From Eledone cirrhosa (Eukaryota), in assembly GCA_964016885.1 (NCBI GenBank), contig OZ024758.1:4340001-4404000 (forward strand): DNA of 64,000 nucleotides, given 5' to 3'. Positions 3,042 to 61,407 of this stretch are shown here, one piece after another; position 1 is the stretch's first letter; every line of letters starts with the position of its first letter. The position numbers were made by a program, and so were the translations under genes. The notes beneath the pieces were generated by a model. The model saw nothing but the letters and a program-made list of their open reading frames with translations, was not told the DNA's origin and did not search any database.

Positions 3042-3279
3042 TTATGTGTGTGCAAAATTCCCGAGATTTATATATATATATATAATGATAAATAGTAGGC
3101 ATCGCCCCTTTTAAATATCGTATTCTAGTTTGCAAGGAAACACTATAGTTAACTCATTAAGACGTCCTCTTCTCGATGTCCACTTTAAATTGACAGGTCC
3201 TAACAGGAAAAAACAACTTATAAAAGTACAAACCATCTGAAATGTAATGAGTCAGAAGGACTTGAAAATGTTAGTGGTG

Positions 3280-3339
<60 letters not shown>

Positions 3340-4800: not shown

Positions 4801-5423
4801 AAAGAACAATATGAGGCTCGAAAAGCACAAATTATATTCTCCCAAATGCACAAATGAGTGCTACATGATTTCATTGATGTGGTAAATATTCTATCAAAGC
4901 ACATGCTACCTGTCCCCTAAAGGATTCAACCTCTCATCACATAACCACATTACAACATTACATGACAACTTTTTCCCATAAAGTGGCCCTGCTACTTTGC
5001 ATATCAAAGTGAAACATGTTAAGAAAAAAGACCACATAACAAGCAAAAGCTTCGTAGATACACCATTCCGCCTACGAATCTCAAATAAGCAAACTAAATC
5101 CTGATATGTTTACAAAACAGTTCTTTACTCAAGTGGGATAAAATATGAATTAAGTATAAAGGATGATTTAAAAGACTTTCGCAGGTAATGCAATTAATTT
5201 GTTTAAATTAAAGAAAAACTGATAAACACCTTAAACCCGTTGTCAAGCATTGGGAGCTTCTACCAGAAAACATATATATAATCTATAAAGAAACATTAGG
5301 AAATACGTAGTCGAGGGATTTAAATAATCTGACACTTATAATGTTAGCCTGAAATGGACGTGGTAATTGGCATGTTAGCACTATATGGTTTTATCTTTGT
5401 ATTCAAATAGAAGTATCAGAGAC

Positions 5424-5456
<33 letters not shown>

Positions 5457-5459
<3 letters not shown>

Positions 5460-5668
5460 CAAAGAAAGTGTGGTAAGAAAGTGTGGTAAGGAACCAGATA
5501 AACCATACCGCACCAGAGTACTCGATATTTTAGGTGGTAGAGTGGGTAATACGAAAATACCCAGGACCCCGACTGCTTACCTCCGGCCGTTTCGACAGCT
5601 AGATCCGAATTGTTTAGATCTAGCTGTCGAAACCGCCGTAGCTCAGCCGTCGGGGTCCTGACTCTTTT

Positions 5669-5670
<2 letters not shown>
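5457..5670. mobile_element. Family A short TA-embedded element with fold-back end
   Basis: Homologous to 18452-18586; internal inversion TTCGACAGCTAGATC...GATCTAGCTGTCGAA; (TA)n on both sides. Confidence 0.8.
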
Positions 5671-5720
<50 letters not shown>

Positions 5721-6925
5721 ATTGGTGGTCTGAAATAGCGATGTATACATGTATGTATGTATAGTATATTTGGCAACATACCGTATGTTTAATTAAAAAC
5801 ATTTTGAAGACCATATGCTACCGGTTTTAAAGTAGTGACTATGTCGCTTACTTCTTTTCGGTGAAAGAAGGGAGAGAAGCAAACAGTCTGTTTCACGCTG
5901 TTTGGCGATCAGCAGGGCCACGCACTCCTTGCTTCCGCCGAAAATTATAGAAGCTGGATTCTTATAGAATATAATATTTTAATTAGCGTAACATGTTTCT
6001 TATGTGATAGGGTGCGGGAAAAGGCACTATAAGTAATTTATGCTCCTTTAAAAACCAACAAATGTTCGTTTGTCTCCCTCACATTTTTAAGGTAAACGAG
6101 GCCCCTGTATATATATGCATGATTTTATTTGGAACTATTGTATTTAATATTCCTTTTTGCATGCTAAGCAATTCTGATATTTGTAGCCGCTGCATATATG
6201 TGATAGATGGAACCTTACTGAGTTGTCACAGCAGTGAAAAACATTTGTATTTTAATGCAACAGCATATTGAAATGAAAATAATTTTATGTTGTGTTAAAT
6301 ATCTCAGAGCTTCTGGTGTTGGTAACCATGCTGATCAGGCCATTACGTTTAGCCAGGAGTGTAAATACAAAATTACATGTTTTGTAATCTATACTTTTCA
6401 CACTGGTTTCAATAATGCTATGTTGATGAGAAACGGGTGTTGTTTCTTATTGAACACTGAGGAAAATAAAGAAATTACTGATCTACCCTGGGCTATATCG
6501 GAATAATAGTATAGGAAATCATTCGACGAGGCATTATCTACAGGCATCGACACCTGTAAATCTAATGTTAACTGCACAATATGTATGTACACATGTATGA
6601 ATACACGTATGTATGTATGCATGTGTATATATATATATATATGAGTATGTATGTTTATGTATATATACATATATATATATATATGAGTATGTATTTATGT
6701 ATGTTTATGTATATATAGTTATATTTGGGGAGGGTCATATTTGCGTAATATTGCCAGAATTAATAACAGAACACACTCACTGTTTGGTTGGTTTTCGCTT
6801 CTCGCTGTCTTTTATATATATATATCTGCGATCTAACTTACTCGGTCCTCAATGTTGCCATTGACTGACCGGCGGTCAAAAATAATACAGATACAATATA
6901 GACAAACACATATATATATAGTTTA

Positions 6926-6963
6926 CATAAATCTTTCGTTGCACATCTGCAACATCGTCAGTG
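6926..6963 (-). ncRNA. Mirror copy of the PLE hammerhead motif
   Basis: Reverse complement of 10881-10918 within the inverted arm. Confidence 0.75.
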
Positions 6964-7225
6964 GTGTTATATTCATTGTTCCTCCTGTTGTGTTGTATGT
7001 CTACGCCATTTTTTTGTTCAGTCTGTCTATATATTTATTTATTTATTTGCTTGTTTGTTTATCTTATTTTATTTTGTCTTCTTTGCGCATGCGTTTGCGT
7101 GTGTGTATAGTGTGATGTGTGACTAGTGTGTATCGTATTGTGTCTGCTGGGTGACTAGTGTGTGTTTATGTGCTTGTGTATGTATTTATTTATCTTATTT
7201 TATTTAATTTAATTTACTTATTTAT

Positions 7226-9454
7226 TTATACTTCTCTTAGGTCAGTGTTGTTTGTTTGGGTGTTGTTGTTGTTCCACTCATTCTTTCTGTTTAGCTTTGG
7301 TTTTCTAATTTCTATTTCACTGGCCTCTCTGATTTGCCTATCTGCTGGGTCATTCCTATGTTTAGATATTATTCTAATTTCTATGTTGTCTATGTTACCG
7401 TCATGATGTTGTCTAGCATGTTCGTATAGTACTGACCCGTTTTTTCGTCCTTTTAGTTCCCCCCAGTGTTGGTCTATCCTTTCACCTATGCTACGAGCTG
7501 TCTCACCTATGTATGTTGTTGTCGTGTTTCTGCAAGTACCCTCTGTACATCTTATGCTATAGACTACGTTTCTAGTTTTACAGTTTATCCGGGGGTTCAC
7601 CTTACATATGATACATTTCCTATTGGTACAGTGGGTTTTCTTAAAAGGGTAGGTTTTGCTGATCAGGGATTTTATGGTGGTTCCTGGCTTTTCTACCACC
7701 TTTATTTTTAAGTGGGTCTTTCTCAGGGCCTTTCTACACTGGTTAGCTAATTTCCCTCCAGGGGTGGCGTCCACAAACATGACACTCTGATATCTCTGGT
7801 TGTCGTACCATGATGTGGCCTTCCCTATCTTATGTCTAGCCCTATCTAAGCTATTCCATGATTTGCTCCTGTATAGTGGGCAAATTCCTTTCATGTCCAG
7901 TTCTATGAGGGTCTTATACTTTTCCATGGCTCCTTCGTATACTCTGACTCTGTCTCTTTGGTTGTAGCCAGAGAACTGCATGCGGTTGATGAAGTGTTGG
8001 ATGTGTCCTTCCATTTCTGTTGGGTCGCACATGCTGGACACATTCTTCATCACTCGTACCAAATCTGCGATCAGAATATTAAACTTAGCACTACTGGACA
8101 TTGCTGAGTTTTTGAGTATCAGGTATTTGGAGGCCATGGGTTTAGCATAGTGTGAGTGGAGAATTTGGGCTCTCTCGTCTATAGTGTTAATCCAGAGTTC
8201 TGTGTCTAATACAGGTAGTCTATTGTTAGGGTGTTTGGAAGGGAAGTCTATAGTTACAGTTATACTCTGGTGTATGGAATTAGCTATCTGCTGGATGCTT
8301 TCCATCGTGCTACGTTCTAAATCAAACTTGTTAGTGCTCTCTAGTGGGGGTGTTCTTATAACTATATTGATATCATCTACATAACGAGAGTACATGATGA
8401 GGTCTATGGAGCTTTCATTAAGGAGATCTTTAAGTCTCCTTTCCCACCATACCATGAAAAGGTTGGCAACATCGCCAGCTATGCTGACGCCGATGGCTGC
8501 TCCCTCATTTTGGGTGTAGATTTTCTCATTGAACTTAAATATGTGGCCCTTTAGGGTAGTTTTGATACTAGCCCCTATTGCATGTGCGACCATTTTTCTT
8601 ACCTGATCAGTGTTTTGGGGGGTCCGTATAGCTTTGGTCCACCCAATCCACCTTCCTATGGGAGTCTTTTTAGCCATTGAGGTTATGGTGGGGGGTCTAC
8701 CTCTTATAGGTCTACTAGGGCAGAAACATCTAAGGTCATGGCTGTCTAGGTAGTCAGTGTCGTAGGTAAGTCTAAGTAGGAGGCCTAGTTCGTCTGTGTC
8801 GACGTCGCAGAACTCCACCTCACTCTCAATGATCATCTCCACACATCTTTTCACAGCAAAATCAATGTTAATGGATGGGTACAGTGACACCACATCCATG
8901 CTGCCTATTATGCAGTTGGATAGGCTCCTGTTTTTGTTGCACTCACTGATTCTGCTGAGGAGGTCCTCTGTACTTTCACATACATCTGGGGACATCTTGA
9001 TTATGGGGCGTATGACCATCGAGAGGAAGTAGGAGATCCTGTAGTTGCTAGCTATATTAGCTCCGCATACAGGTCTTGTTGGTGGTCCTATTGTCGGGTC
9101 GTCGACTGTCTTGTGGTCTTTGCGGAGCCCATACAAGGGTGGTATGCCATTGTTAGACGCCTGGAAGTTGTTGGCAGTGCGTCTGCTTGGCTTTAGGATG
9201 TCAGTCCACATCATCATGTGAGCGTTGAGGATTTTTTCTCTCCCATCGTGTGTTAGTTGTGCAACTTCGCTCGTGTTGGTGATGTGGGGTTGCATTGCCT
9301 CGATGTAGTTCGGCATGCTATCTATTGACATCCTACCAGACTTATCTGTGGGTAGACACACTACCTCACCATCCCTTGTGCGCTGCTTGAGGCTAACCAA
9401 GCCTTCTACAGGTTTTATCCCAAGTTGTTGGGCCTCTGGTCTGCTCTGTCTCAT
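7226..9454 (-). CDS. PLE reverse transcriptase-GIY-YIG endonuclease polyprotein, N-terminally truncated (frame stays open to the junction at ~9528)
   Basis: Motifs TDKSG, PTRPVC, MDVVSLYPSI, GAAIG, RYVDD, LPVLD, SGY; Cys-rich linker CTNRKCIIC...C; GIY-YIG signature VYSIRC...C...YIGETARSIGER...H...EASEI...KPKLN. No internal stops. Confidence 0.95.
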   Translation of the reverse strand: MRQSRPEAQQLGIKPVEGLVSLKQRTRDGEVVCLPTDKSGRMSIDSMPNYIEAMQPHITNTSEVAQLTHDGREKILNAHMMMWTDILKPSRRTANNFQASNNGIPPLYGLRKDHKTVDDPTIGPPTRPVCGANIASNYRISYFLSMVIRPIIKMSPDVCESTEDLLSRISECNKNRSLSNCIIGSMDVVSLYPSINIDFAVKRCVEMIIESEVEFCDVDTDELGLLLRLTYDTDYLDSHDLRCFCPSRPIRGRPPTITSMAKKTPIGRWIGWTKAIRTPQNTDQVRKMVAHAIGASIKTTLKGHIFKFNEKIYTQNEGAAIGVSIAGDVANLFMVWWERRLKDLLNESSIDLIMYSRYVDDINIVIRTPPLESTNKFDLERSTMESIQQIANSIHQSITVTIDFPSKHPNNRLPVLDTELWINTIDERAQILHSHYAKPMASKYLILKNSAMSSSAKFNILIADLVRVMKNVSSMCDPTEMEGHIQHFINRMQFSGYNQRDRVRVYEGAMEKYKTLIELDMKGICPLYRSKSWNSLDRARHKIGKATSWYDNQRYQSVMFVDATPGGKLANQCRKALRKTHLKIKVVEKPGTTIKSLISKTYPFKKTHCTNRKCIICKVNPRINCKTRNVVYSIRCTEGTCRNTTTTYIGETARSIGERIDQHWGELKGRKNGSVLYEHARQHHDGNIDNIEIRIISKHRNDPADRQIREASEIEIRKPKLNRKNEWNNNNTQTNNTDLREV

Positions 9455-9538
9455 AGTGTACCTGTCTACTACTTGTCTAATCTTATTTCTAGCTATGGTG
9501 AACTGTGCCTCCGTCTCGTCATCTATTTACGTAGCACG

Positions 9539-10618
9539 ATGGAAAGCATCCAGCAGATAGCTAATTCCATACACCAGAGTATAACTGTAACTATAGACTT
9601 CCCTTCCAAACACCCTAACAATAGACTACCTGTATTAGACACAGAACTCTGGATTAACACTATAGACGAGAGAGCCCAAATTCTCCACTCACACTATGCT
9701 AAACCCATGGCCTCCAAATACCTGATACTCAAAAACTCAGCAATGTCCAGTAGTGCTAAGTTTAATATTCTGATCGCAGATTTGGTACGAGTGATGAAGA
9801 ATGTGTCCAGCATGTGCGACCCAACAGAAATGGAAGGACACATCCAACACTTCATCAACCGCATGCAGTTCTCTGGCTACAACCAAAGAGACAGAGTCAG
9901 AGTATACGAAGGAGCCATGGAAAAGTATAAGACCCTCATAGAACTGGACATGAAAGGAATTTGCCCACTATACAGGAGCAAATCATGGAATAGCTTAGAT
10001 AGGGCTAGACATAAGATAGGGAAGGCCACATCATGGTACGACAACCAGAGATATCAGAGTGTCATGTTTGTGGACGCCACCCCTGGAGGGAAATTAGCTA
10101 ACCAGTGTAGAAAGGCCCTGAGAAAGACCCACTTAAAAATAAAGGTGGTAGAAAAGCCAGGAACCACCATAAAATCCCTGATCAGCAAAACCTACCCTTT
10201 TAAGAAAACCCACTGTACCAATAGGAAATGTATCATATGTAAGGTGAACCCCCGGATAAACTGTAAAACTAGAAACATAGTCTATAGCATAAGATGTACA
10301 GAGGGTACTTGCAGAAACACGACAACAACATACATAGGTGAGACAGCTCGTAGCATAGGTGAAAGGATAGACCAACACTGGGGGGAACTAAAAGGACGAA
10401 AAAACGGGTCAGTACTATACGAACATGCTAGACAACATCATGACGGTAACATAGACAACATAGAAATTAGAATAATATCTAAACATAGGAATGACCCAGC
10501 AGATAGGCAAATCAGAGAGGCCAGTGAAATAGAAATTAGAAAACCAAAGCTAAACAGAAAGAATGAGTGGAACAACAACAACACCCAAACAAACAACACT
10601 GACCTAAGAGAAGTATAA
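9539..10618 (+). CDS. Inverted duplicate of the PLE ORF 3' part (RT C-terminal/thumb region + GIY-YIG)
   Basis: From MESIQQ onward it matches the minus-strand ORF except V->I (RNVVY vs RNIVY). The track's 9425 start adds junction-derived antisense residues. Confidence 0.85.
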   Translation: MESIQQIANSIHQSITVTIDFPSKHPNNRLPVLDTELWINTIDERAQILHSHYAKPMASKYLILKNSAMSSSAKFNILIADLVRVMKNVSSMCDPTEMEGHIQHFINRMQFSGYNQRDRVRVYEGAMEKYKTLIELDMKGICPLYRSKSWNSLDRARHKIGKATSWYDNQRYQSVMFVDATPGGKLANQCRKALRKTHLKIKVVEKPGTTIKSLISKTYPFKKTHCTNRKCIICKVNPRINCKTRNIVYSIRCTEGTCRNTTTTYIGETARSIGERIDQHWGELKGRKNGSVLYEHARQHHDGNIDNIEIRIISKHRNDPADRQIREASEIEIRKPKLNRKNEWNNNNTQTNNTDLREV

Positions 10619-10880
10619 ATAAATAAGTAAATTAAATTAAATAAAATAAGATAAATAAATACATACACAAGCACATAAACACACACTAGTCACCCAGCAG
10701 ACACAATACGATACACACTAGTCACACATCACACTATACACACACGCAAACGCATGCGCAAAGAAGACAAAATAAAATAAGATAAACAAACAAGCAAATA
10801 AATAAATAAATATATAGACAGACTGAACAAAAAAATGGCGTAGACATACAACACAACAGGAGGAACAATGAATATAACAC

Positions 10881-10918
10881 CACTGACGATGTTGCAGATG
10901 TGCAACGAAAGATTTATG
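10881..10918 (+). ncRNA. Minimal type I hammerhead ribozyme motif in the PLE 3' region (pLTR)
   Basis: CA-CTGACGA-T-GTTGCA(GATG)TGCAAC-GAAA-GATT-TA-TG: core boxes and a perfect 6-bp stem II; stem I is weak. Confidence 0.75.
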
Positions 10919-11186
10919 TAAACTATATATATATGTGTTTGTCTATATTGTATCTGTATTATTTTTGACCGCCGGTCAGTCAATGGCAACATTGAGGACC
11001 GAGTAAGTTAGATCGCAGATATATATATATAAAAGACAGCGAGAAGCGAAAACCAACCAAACAGTGAGTGTGTTCTGTTATTAATTCTGGCAATATTACG
11101 CAAATATGACCCTCCCCAAATATAACAATATCTGTTTCGACACACGATTTCATATAAAAAACCTCGCAAAACTAATTCATCGCCGC

Positions 11187-11230
<44 letters not shown>

Positions 11231-11734
11231 TGTATGTATATGTCTATGTAAGCATGAGGTTTGTCCAAAAGGTAAGAGTAGTGATGTTTTATGTAATGTA
11301 TATTAGACGTACATGAATTACAAGTTATTTTTTTCAAAACATAACCCTTGGGAAATCACACAGTCGTTCCAATGTTTTGTCAATTGGCCGTAGCAGTACC
11401 GGAAATCATTTTCTCTGAGTGTCCTTAGCTCGTCGTTTACAAGGTTTTGCCTATGTACTTTTGTACGTACGTACGTACGTACGTACGTACGTACGTATGT
11501 ATGTATGTATGTATGTATGTATGTATGTATGTATGTATTTGACAATCGCCACCGATGAATGCGAGAAAGTTCTCCAGGAAAGTTAACCAGTAATCTTTAA
11601 ATATCTCCCCACCGAAGTTAACAAAGTACTTACGAGATCTACCAAATCATTATATTATAAAATTAAATCAAATTGTTTAGAACTACAAATGAAGTCATTC
11701 TTTTCCTTCTTTTCATTTTATATATATATATATA

Positions 11735-11774
<40 letters not shown>

Positions 11775-11878
11775 TATATATATGAATATATGTATGTATA
11801 TATGCATTTCAGGACGTTCTTCAAGAGAGAGGTGGAGATAGGAGAGGAGAGATTGTATATATATATATATACATACAG

Positions 11879-12020
11879 AGTCCAGAATTAGCCGTCGAAA
11901 CGGCTTGAGCTCAGCCGTCGGGGGTCCTACTCGTTCCTATTACCCACTCTACTATCCTAAGTATTGAGTACTTTGGTGCGTTATGGTCCACCTATTTCCT
12001 TACCAGATTTCCTCCGTTAT
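11879..12020. mobile_element. Family A short element (opposite orientation to the 18452 copy)
   Basis: Reverse complement of 43988-44127; TA-flanked. Confidence 0.85.
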
Positions 12021-16094: not shown

Positions 16095-16355
16095 AATATT
16101 GTTATACTTTGGGAGAGTCATGCTGCCAATAGAAACACACACAGAATGAGGGAAGAAAGACCTTTGGCAATATACAAACAACCATACGGTTATCGAACCA
16201 ACTAACCAACCGGAAATTTATAATAAAATGAAGTTAAAACCAACAGGTGCGTGTGTTTTTATTGATAGCATGACCCTCCCAAAGGCTAACAATATCTGTT
16301 TCAACACAAGTTTTCAGATAAGAAAACTTGCAAAACAAATTCAAAAATGAAATAT
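16095..16355. mobile_element. Old, miniature inverted PLE-end relic related to the main element's terminus
   Basis: ~47-bp imperfect inverted repeat (16096-16142 vs 16249-16295). ATGACCCTCCCAAAG..AACAATATCTGTTTC is homologous to 11106-11180. Confidence 0.7.
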
Positions 16356-16577
16356 AAAATACTGTTTTCCCTGAAATGCGCAGGGCACGATTTAATCGAT
16401 TTTCTCCTCACCCAAAATTGTTGGCCTTGTACCTAAATTAGAAACAATTATTATACATAAAATGAATATGGAGAATGCAGATGAAATAATATGTGCACCG
16501 GTCTAATTCAGAAACCTTTCTGGCTTAATACATTGTGAAATAGGGTATAAATTACATAAACATACATACATAGATAC

Positions 16578-18451: not shown

Positions 18452-18586
18452 TAACGAAGGAAATGTGGTAAGGAACCAGGTGGACCATAACGCACCAAAG
18501 TACTCAATACTTAGGGTAGTAGAGTGGGTAATAGGAACCAGTAAGACCCCGACGGCTGAGCTCAAGCCGTTTCGACGGCTAATTCT
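18452..18586. mobile_element. Family A short element
   Basis: Near-identical to 43988-44127; TA-flanked. Confidence 0.85.
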
Positions 18587-24493: not shown

Positions 24494-24646
24494 CGAAAAG
24501 AGTCAGAGGACCGACGGCAGAGCTTAACCGAGATTGAGCTCTGCCATCGGGGTCCTGACTCTTTTCCTATTACTCTCTCTACTACCCAAAGTATCGCGTA
24601 CTCTGGTGCGTTATGGTCCACCTGCTTCCTTACCACACTTCCTTTG

Positions 24647-26445: not shown

Positions 26446-27331
<886 letters not shown>

Positions 27332-27365
27332 TATACATACATACATACATACATACATACATACA

Positions 27366-27401
<36 letters not shown>

Positions 27402-27573
27402 TATATATAAAGAGAATGATAAAAAAGGGTTTCAACAACGATTTTCAAACACCATGTTAAAAATCATTCTCAGATAAGTAGAATGATTTTTAAAAAAGCG
27501 TTTGAAAAGGGTTTTTCAAACCGTTTTTTATCATTCTCCTTGTGTAATGTATAGAACGCCCACACATTTTTCC

Positions 27574-33894: not shown

Positions 33895-34011
33895 TTGAGA
33901 AGTTTGATTGTGTTTCATACAGTACAATTCCTGCAGTTGTTCGAATGTGAAATAAATTGTAAACTTGATCTAGTGGTATATATATATATATATAAAGAAA
34001 TGAATAACAAT

Positions 34012-34063
<52 letters not shown>

Positions 34064-34068
34064 AAGAA

Positions 34069-34170
34069 ATGAATAACAATATCGGTTTCAACACACGTTT
34101 TCAGATAAAGAATCTTGCTAAACAAATTCAGAAACGAAATGAATATAGTTTTTTGCAAATAAAATATTAA
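34069..34170 (+). mobile_element. PLE tail/ORF-start fragment
   Basis: Encodes NNIGFNTRFQIKNLAKQIQ, versus NNICFDTRFHIKNLAKLIH at 11106-11188. Confidence 0.65.
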
Positions 34171-35178: not shown

Positions 35179-35214
35179 TCTTCTGATGAAGGACTAGCGT
35201 CCGAAACGTTAAGA
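35179..35214 (+). ncRNA. Minimal hammerhead ribozyme motif in a dispersed repeat (~35140-35290)
   Basis: TCTT-CTGATGA-A-GGAC(TAGC)GTCC-GAAA-CG-TT-AAGA; stem I TCTT/AAGA; palindromic AACGTT. Confidence 0.8.
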
Positions 35215-35580: not shown

Positions 35581-35826
35581 GCAAATATTGCGGCTATGGG
35601 AAATATACAATAGACTTGTAGACATAAAAATATGGCGTAAGACACAACAAAGAAGAGAAAGAAAATTAGTAATTGAGGTGTTCACAGAATGTGTGACGAA
35701 AGAACTTTGACAATGTATATACAACCAACCGGTTATCAAACCAGCCAACCGAAAATCTGTAATTGAAGTGAATACCAACAGGTGCATGTTTTTATTGGCA
35801 GGATGTCCTTCCCAAAGTATAACAAT
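35560..35826 (+). mobile_element. Diverged PLE terminal fragment
   Basis: Similar to 16150-16290 and ends CTTCCCAAAGTATAACAA then (TA)n. ATGGCGTA-GACA motif shared with 10835. Confidence 0.6.
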
Positions 35827-36019
35827 ATATATATATATTTCCATGACATCACAATATCCTTTTTCTTATGCCCTACTTTTTCATAGATACGTTAAAATAT
35901 TTCATTATGTGTTCCAACTCGTGTGAAACTAATGAGACTGTATCCGTATCTTTATATTTTACCTCACTATGTCAAACACCCAGTCTGGCTCGTGAAAAAT
36001 GTTCATTTCCTTGATTACA

Positions 36020-43990: not shown

Positions 43991-44127
43991 CGAAGGAAAT
44001 GTGGTAAGGAACCAGGTGGACCATAACGCACCAAAGTACTCAATACTTGAGGTAGTAGAGTGGGTAATAGGAACCAGTAAGACCCCGACAGCTGAGCTCA
44101 AGCCGTTTCGACGGCTAATTCTGGACT
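43988..44127. mobile_element. Family A short element
   Basis: Near-identical to 18452-18586; TA-flanked. Confidence 0.85.
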
Positions 44128-60596: not shown

Positions 60597-60831
60597 TAAT
60601 AGTAATAAATTTGAAGACTAAAATCCAAAGAGGGCTCGATAAGGATAAATATATATCAAATATATAATAACCGTAGAGCAAATATTTATTAAAATAACAG
60701 TTTAACGTTTAAGCAAAGAATCGCTACTTTCACCCTTAACGGGATCTTCTGACACTAACGAGTTAGTTTCAGAAGATCCCGTTAAGGGTGAAAGCAGCGA
60801 TTCTTTGCTTAAACTGTAATCTGTTATTTTA

Positions 60832-60839: not shown

Positions 60840-60875
<36 letters not shown>

Positions 60876-61407
60876 CCCTCCCCAAGTATAACTATATATA
60901 TATATATATATAGATATATATATAGAGAGATATATGGGCGTGTATAATAAATTTATATTAATATTAATCCTTTCTCTCTCTCTATCTACTTATTCCATCA
61001 TGTATACAATCCTTATATATCTACTGTTCTCTCTATCCCTCTTTGTTAGTGTGGGTGTGTGTCTATATAGATATATACACTCATACACATATGGGGCAGA
61101 TTCAGGAATCAGAAAACTCGGAAGAAGCAAGCACATGTAACGCGGAGAATTCAGTTTTATTAACTGTTTTCTAAGGATCCTTATAATTTCGCATGCTTTT
61201 AAAAGACTGGAATATTCACCCTTAGTGCATCAATAGTATCCGAAGATAGCTACAGGGAGAAAAACACAAGGGACGTTAGACAAAATGGAAACTAAGATGA
61301 AATATCTTCATACCGATGTGGTACAGGATAATTGCTGCAATCGAAAGCAACACACCTCTATGGGTAGGTAAACGTATGGGGATTAAGAAATTAATCGCCC
61401 TTAAAAT

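Follow-up and report, generated by a model that had tools for sequence, protein, structure and literature searches.

What is the short open frame that closes one arm of a Penelope-like retroelement (PLE) copy in the octopus Eledone cirrhosa, directly before a (TA)n tract? We analyze this arm within a stretch of 64,000 nt (contig OZ024758.1 of assembly GCA_964016885.1, positions 4,340,001 to 4,404,000; hereafter the window). An earlier note, made from the letters alone, proposed that the element's 3′ tail encodes the missing N-terminus of its own ORF, and that the template was terminally redundant, tandem or circularly permuted. We conclude that the arm very probably ends in the element's own first 27 codons, copied from a more-than-unit-length transcript.

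The insertion has two arms joined 5′-to-5′ (Table 1), which differ by a single mismatch over 1598 nt. Both are 5′-truncated copies, because in other copies (four contigs of sequencing run X1 and one of run X4) the sequence at 9529 runs on from 8316 on the other strand. Because the left arm keeps seven ORF-start codons and the right arm 27, the 60-nt difference between them is a PLE ‘tail’. A pLTR arrangement, tandem or inverted, with 5′ truncation is a feature of EN+ PLEs, as is an optional tail extending the ORF start at one end, and both are present here, the first as head-to-head arms and the tail on the right arm only. The arms are flanked by a candidate target-site duplication; 12 nt was the sole matching length among the 4 to 24 tested, in a low-complexity sequence that makes up 7 of the 2268 TA-rich 12-mers on the plus strand.

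Table 1. Positions of the two-armed insertion, its parts and the other ORF-start copies in the window
Feature	Position	Strand	Remarks
Candidate target-site duplication, left copy (TATGTATATATA)	6706..6717	+	same 12 nt as 11187-11198
Left arm, 5′-truncated PLE copy	6718..9526	-	short end without tail; stops after ORF-start codon 7
ORF start codons 1-7 (MTLPKYN), then (TA)n	6718..6738	-	left arm
Hammerhead-like core	6934..6961	-	left arm
Open frame of 766 aa	7226..9526	-	left arm; TDKSG, RT core (YVDD), CX4CxxC linker, GIY-YIG-type endonuclease
Head-to-head arm junction	9527..9528	.	0-2 nt between arms, joined 5′-to-5′
Right arm, shorter 5′-truncated copy	9529..11186	+	long end with tail; stops after ORF-start codon 27
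C-terminal ORF remnant (thumb, Cys linker, endonuclease)	9530..10618	+	right arm
Minimal hammerhead-like core CTGACGA...GAAA	10883..10910	+	right arm; stem II 6 bp, stem I 2 bp
Likely ORF-start codons 1-27	11106..11186	+	right arm
60-nt tail, codons 8-27	11127..11186	+	right arm only
Candidate target-site duplication, right copy	11187..11198	+	same 12 nt as 6706-6717
Diverged ORF start, short end	16096..16121	-	
Diverged ORF start, long end, related family	16270..16347	+	head-to-head with 16121 copy
Diverged tail-like piece, codons 7-27 only	34075..34137	+	
Diverged ORF start, short end, then (TA)n	35803..35828	+	
Codons 1-7 only	60872..60892	+	flanked by two (TA)n runs

The predicted protein places the element among known PLEs. 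The 766-residue frame matches RVT_1 at E 1.6e-4, which is below the Pfam cut-off, and carries YVDD at residue 382, a linker CTNRKCIIC between RT and EN at residue 633 that agrees with the CX2-5CxxC definition, and an endonuclease core VYSI-C-x4-C-x6-YIG at residue 655 with R, H, E and N downstream. Two cysteines within the GIY/YIG core and downstream His (QHW, EHARQHH) are residues of the CCHH type, and the frame has DKS in place of DKT. Pfam gave no GIY-YIG match on this query frame; the relative P0096 carries PF01541. No Pfam family was found on the 27-residue peptide or on the right-arm frame, and none of use on four relatives. Judged from these motifs, the element is an EN+ PLE with a single predicted ORF, RT followed by a C-terminal GIY-YIG-type endonuclease, and its family appears Neptune-like (with a Cys linker), an assignment to Neptune/Nematis made by described motifs. 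The Cys linker before EN sets it apart from the Penelope/Poseidon clade, the CCHH-type residues and DKS from the Hydra clade (CCHH absent, DKT, CxCX5C linker), and the C-terminal position of the endonuclease from the Naiad and Chlamys clades, where it is N-terminal. The best relative of the frame is an Octopus vulgaris protein (68%). Because many relatives reach 1000–1220 aa, some 280–320 N-terminal residues are absent from the frame. We found no published description of this octopus PLE family; Repbase/Dfam, subscription papers or supplements may already name it.

We now turn to the segment at the end of the right arm. From the ATG at 11106 the frame reads MTLPKYNNICFDTRFHIKNLAKLIHRR, enters (TA)n and encounters a stop only at 11304, after the microsatellite; the start codon and the run into (TA)n are as the earlier note described them, and the element ends at 11186 rather than 11188. 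With no stop of its own and a frame that enters the microsatellite, a translated small protein at this locus is ruled out. Within the window, tblastn also recovers both diverged copies previously named, at 16270 (65% over 26 aa, E 8e-9) and at 34069 (71% over 21 aa, E 3e-6), the second match beginning at 34075, two codons downstream of the ATG at 34069. A chance ORF is ruled out by these copies together with the N-terminal homology described below.

Coding constraint had been argued from five synonymous differences between 11106 and 34069. All five are real and there is a sixth (CGC/CGA), while 6 of the 21 compared codons differ non-synonymously, for a dN/dS of 0.21 (Fisher p 0.03). The ratio is 0.24 for 16270/34069 (p 0.11) and a non-significant 0.59 for 11106/16270 (p 0.37). 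Over six copies, the variable columns number 7, 4 and 12 at codon positions 1, 2 and 3 (binomial p 0.048), and similarity starts at the ATG, with 22–23 of 26 nt identical downstream compared with 6–11 of 30 upstream (ungapped). Overall, the substitution pattern points to a coding signal that is real but modest. The 27 stranded codons would have no function at this locus, and their coding signature would derive from the source elements, in which they form the real N-terminus.

Full-length relatives help to place these codons within an ORF. The closest of them begin MVKTKLPCYGLCFSTRETI (P0044), MALKPINYGYNTRSII (P0018) and MAITRGLSFDTRDTI (P0029), and align with the tail peptide from Met1. A first profile of nine rows had its best window among residues 1–30 of only two long relatives out of 27 (P0044 and P0018), and the motif is absent from the 21 relatives with 32–38% identity. 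A second profile, built from the three window peptides only and chosen after the first result was known, scored 33.0 on P0044 and 28.7 on the locus L001, both above all 90,938 background windows (maximum 22.0), and ranked the N-terminal window 1, 2, 3, 3 and 4 within P0018, P0029, P0007, P0069 and P0010. L001 and P0044 are 72% identical and not independent, so they count once.

L001 is the best DNA relative among 80 loci, with 50% identity in its best segment. Its order is a stop at 3129, a hammerhead core at 3237, an ATG at 3310 and then, via a 123-nt terminal overlap of the contig, the ORF, which contains one internal stop and a later frame change. The overlap may be a tandem collapsed in assembly, but it places 3′ UTR, hammerhead core and ORF start side by side. 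A 5′ pLTR that leads into the ORF start characterizes full-length EN+ PLE copies, and L001 shows it. A second locus, L023, has the same order and an unrelated N-terminus; the self-repeat check covered 23 of the 80 loci. A tblastn search of the 80 loci with the tail peptide gave no significant match (best E 0.14) and missed the N-terminus of L001, which was found only by profile and alignment. The proposal that the 3′ tail encodes the N-terminus of its own ORF is supported, both by the matching N-termini of the closest full-length relatives and by the same order in L001, and positions 11106–11186 probably hold codons 1–27 of this ORF.

In protein profile searches, sequencing contigs and O. vulgaris models, we recovered no sequence of this octopus family that runs on from tail to RT body. 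Among 50 candidates of 71–2000 aa, the tail profile matched one protein, an O. bimaculoides gene model of 136 aa in which the motif is lost beyond about residue 27. Among 1.84 billion representatives it gave seven matches, five short motif-only proteins and two repeats; P0122 and P0127 were discarded as repeat-driven false matches. None of the 8 loose contig ends listed (of 631) runs into ORF sequence. None of 69 stretches from a metagenome contig scan with a single protein was related, nor any of 11 from a viral contig scan with an alignment. Run X19, which we guess to be RNA, gave three matching contigs, none on the tail, and run X22 a single read. In O. vulgaris, nine of ten shorter gene models from a family with 65% identity begin at an internal Met (MYT(H/N)), which alignment places some 250 residues inside full-length relatives; these are probably gene-finder starts. 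Dozens of Octopus gene models (P0129–P0176) cluster with a related PLE family, some of them named heparan-alpha-glucosaminide N-acetyltransferase or Helitron helicase-like, likely through annotation contamination.

The two arm ends recur elsewhere. Besides the two diverged copies, tblastn across the window finds four shorter ORF starts, at 6738(-), 16121(-), 35803(+) and 60872(+), and all four have the short end, at codon 7–9. Among the loose ends listed (8 of 631), 35 X1 contigs switch from the reference to (AT)n at 11189, and a single X4 contig stops at 11174. Both end points, at ATG+21 and ATG+81, are found in other copies. Run X1 contributed 16,685 contigs matched to the stretch, whose summed depth, which gives no copy number, is about 38,000–207,000 in the ORF's 5′ part and climbs to about 1,000,000 at the tail; this profile fits an abundant, 5′-truncating family.

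Several of these small copies have surroundings of their own. Positions 16096–16360 form a miniature head-to-head pair of ORF starts, one with a short and one with a long end and without an ORF body, which echoes the main locus. At 33990–34150, (AT)n is flanked by two copies of a 23-nt sequence that stops at the short end point, and the second copy continues as the tail-like piece. Just upstream of the 60872 piece, at about 60700–60830, lies a long near-perfect inverted repeat, by eye a MITE-like hairpin. The window also holds a second repeat family of about 135 bp, at 11878–12015 (+), 18458–18586 (-), 43994–44127 (-), 24534–24643 (+), 5476–5601 (-) and 5621–5673 (+), with one nearly fixed end in (TA)n, a GCCGTCGAAACGGC hairpin in the closest copies and one frame open in two copies; it may represent the terminal part of a different (TA)n-targeting element. 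An open frame at 26738–27463 (-) has several C2H2 zinc-finger matches and is either a host exon or a retroelement remnant. Among the related loci, L003 carries a 97.8% identical direct terminal repeat of 936 nt (1–936 and 5118–6053), which takes in the open frame's 5′ portion; L003 also has 105-nt tandem repeats within the N-terminal coding region.

How would an ORF start come to lie at a 3′ end? The pLTR and tail are reported to contain the first 12–22 aa of the ORF (Arkhipova 2013, PMC3846280), and reverse transcription begins within the 5′ part of the ORF (Frangieh 2024, PMC11167929). For PAc in vitro, the latter source places RT starts 111–118 bp into the ORF and describes the tail as the stretch that separates two RT start sites. 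Both sources (PMC11167929, PMC3846280) offer a tandem template, longer than one unit, as the explanation. By extension of this work, transcription of a partial-tandem source copy would pass through pLTR, ORF and pLTR and enter the next ORF start. The RT-EN protein would bind the RNA near that ORF start, nick TA-rich DNA and prime cDNA at either of two internal sites, which would leave 7 or 27 codons at the end of a new copy. The element would carry the ORF start at its 3′ end because the point where reverse transcription begins likely lies within the next unit's ORF start. The near-identical arms and the candidate duplication suggest to us that one event may have used both start sites. We hold only tentatively, as a doubtful but specific possibility, that in a single insertion both nicked strands primed cDNA on two RNA copies, at +21 and +81, which met head-to-head, and that the 60-nt tail (as at 34075–34137) and the 21-nt piece preceding it (as at 60872) can also be inserted alone. 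If this were true, two-site internal initiation, known in vitro only and for a Poseidon element, would also apply to a Neptune-type family of very high abundance, and one could test across the genome which start site each strand uses.

The conserved segment could instead be a non-coding cis-element (a protein-binding or RT-start signal) or an intron, with an incidental frame and a true ORF that starts further down. PAc needs the first 172 nt of its ORF on the RNA template, so conservation here is possible for RNA reasons (PMC11167929); donor-like GTAAGT (11003) and GTGAGT (11064) lie upstream of the ATG, with AG absent from 11106–11186; the O. vulgaris models begin at an internal Met; and one of the three dN/dS pairs is at 0.59. 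However, the segment is homologous to the N-termini of uninterrupted full-length ORFs, its conservation begins at the ATG, its differences favour third positions, and the internal Met lies some 250 residues inside full-length relatives. The tail also lacks stable RNA structure (z +1.2 to +1.3): folding predicts no stable hairpin for the 11106 tail and found no structure shared across tails (z +1.3, +1.2, -1.7 and +0.9). We consider a purely non-coding segment very unlikely, and a cis role and a coding role are compatible rather than exclusive. As for splice-like signals in general, the copies at 16121(-), 16270(+) and 35803(+) have a T-rich acceptor-like stretch and an AG one base before the ATG, a pattern that suggests an intron in the 5′ UTR, like that of Penelope; at 11106, no such AG precedes the ATG.

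In place of linear tandem read-through, hammerhead cleavage followed by ligation could have supplied the template, as a circular RNA or a circularly permuted one. A hammerhead-like core does lie at 10883, 223 nt upstream of the ATG, PMC4209133 describes minimal hammerheads in pLTRs and proposes a circular-RNA route for PLEs, and three relatives (L001, L008 and L023) assemble with terminal overlaps. But collapsed tandem copies predict terminal overlaps equally, stem I of this core has just 2 bp beside a 6-bp stem II, and for PAc the available part of PMC11167929 reports ribozyme mutants without effect on in vitro insertion and no RNA-seq reads ending at the cleavage site. Rfam gave no match in the window at the gathering score and, at E up to 10 over 10600–11200, three chance matches and no hammerhead. 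We judge a circular or permuted template unlikely; of the templates put forward in the earlier note, tandem read-through is better supported. Further hammerhead-like cores occur at 35183 (+), 58312 (+), 58006 (-) and 12449 (+), of which the 35183 core, 620 nt upstream of the 35803 ORF-start copy, resembles a minimal type I hammerhead in that its stems I and II are 4 bp long. It is highly improbable that the 3′ segment comes from another, captured repeat instead of being the element's own ORF start. Pieces of it do occur in the window without an ORF body (16121, 16270, 34075, 35803 and 60872), and the summed contig depth is far higher over 11004–11190 than over the ORF; yet a 3′ excess is what 5′ truncation predicts, the segment is contiguous with ORF and UTR in both arms, and the N-termini that it matches are those of the RT's closest relatives and not of unrelated proteins.

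Read as the element's own ORF start, the tail supplies the N-terminus for a family of mostly 5′-truncated copies, points to two likely RT start sites that lie 60 nt apart in a PLE with a Cys linker, and has pieces elsewhere that explain spurious octopus gene models. A correct inference from raw sequence is confirmed, and little new biology is added. The available part of bioRxiv 10.64898/2026.07.22.740005 holds nothing on PLE tails; the other sources, as far as their available parts go, describe three systems for comparison. Pen2a_Av of Adineta vaga (Penelope/Poseidon) likewise has inverted pLTRs, a target duplication (a candidate here) and a tail on one end only (PMC3846280). Its pLTR contains the first 12 aa of the ORF and its 31-bp tail extends them to 22 aa, compared with 7 and 27 aa and a 60-nt tail here; Penelope/Poseidon elements have no Cys linker, whereas here the linker is present, both arms are 5′-truncated and the ATG lies 223 nt past the hammerhead-like core. 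In PAc (Poseidon_Ac, Anolis carolinensis), as here, insertions end at two sites in the 5′ part of the ORF that bound the tail, and targets are AT-rich (PMC11167929). In vitro, nicking and extension take place on both target strands of PAc, whereas the present case is read from sequence; PAc starts RT at an AC-rich stem-loop and its ORF begins inside the hammerhead, in contrast to ends at +21 and +81 in a tail with no predicted stable hairpin. There is also a likeness to Neptune/Nematis (PMC8557442), with a C-terminal GIY-YIG of CCHH-type Cys/His, a CX2-5CxxC linker, a hammerhead near the 3′ end (here a hammerhead-like core), and inverted 5′-truncated copies with a tail at one end in a (TA)n context; the tail is stated as 30–40 bp there and is 60 nt here. 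An ORF start at a PLE end is already documented anatomy (PMC3846280, PMC11167929), and it is found here in a Neptune-like family with a somewhat longer tail.
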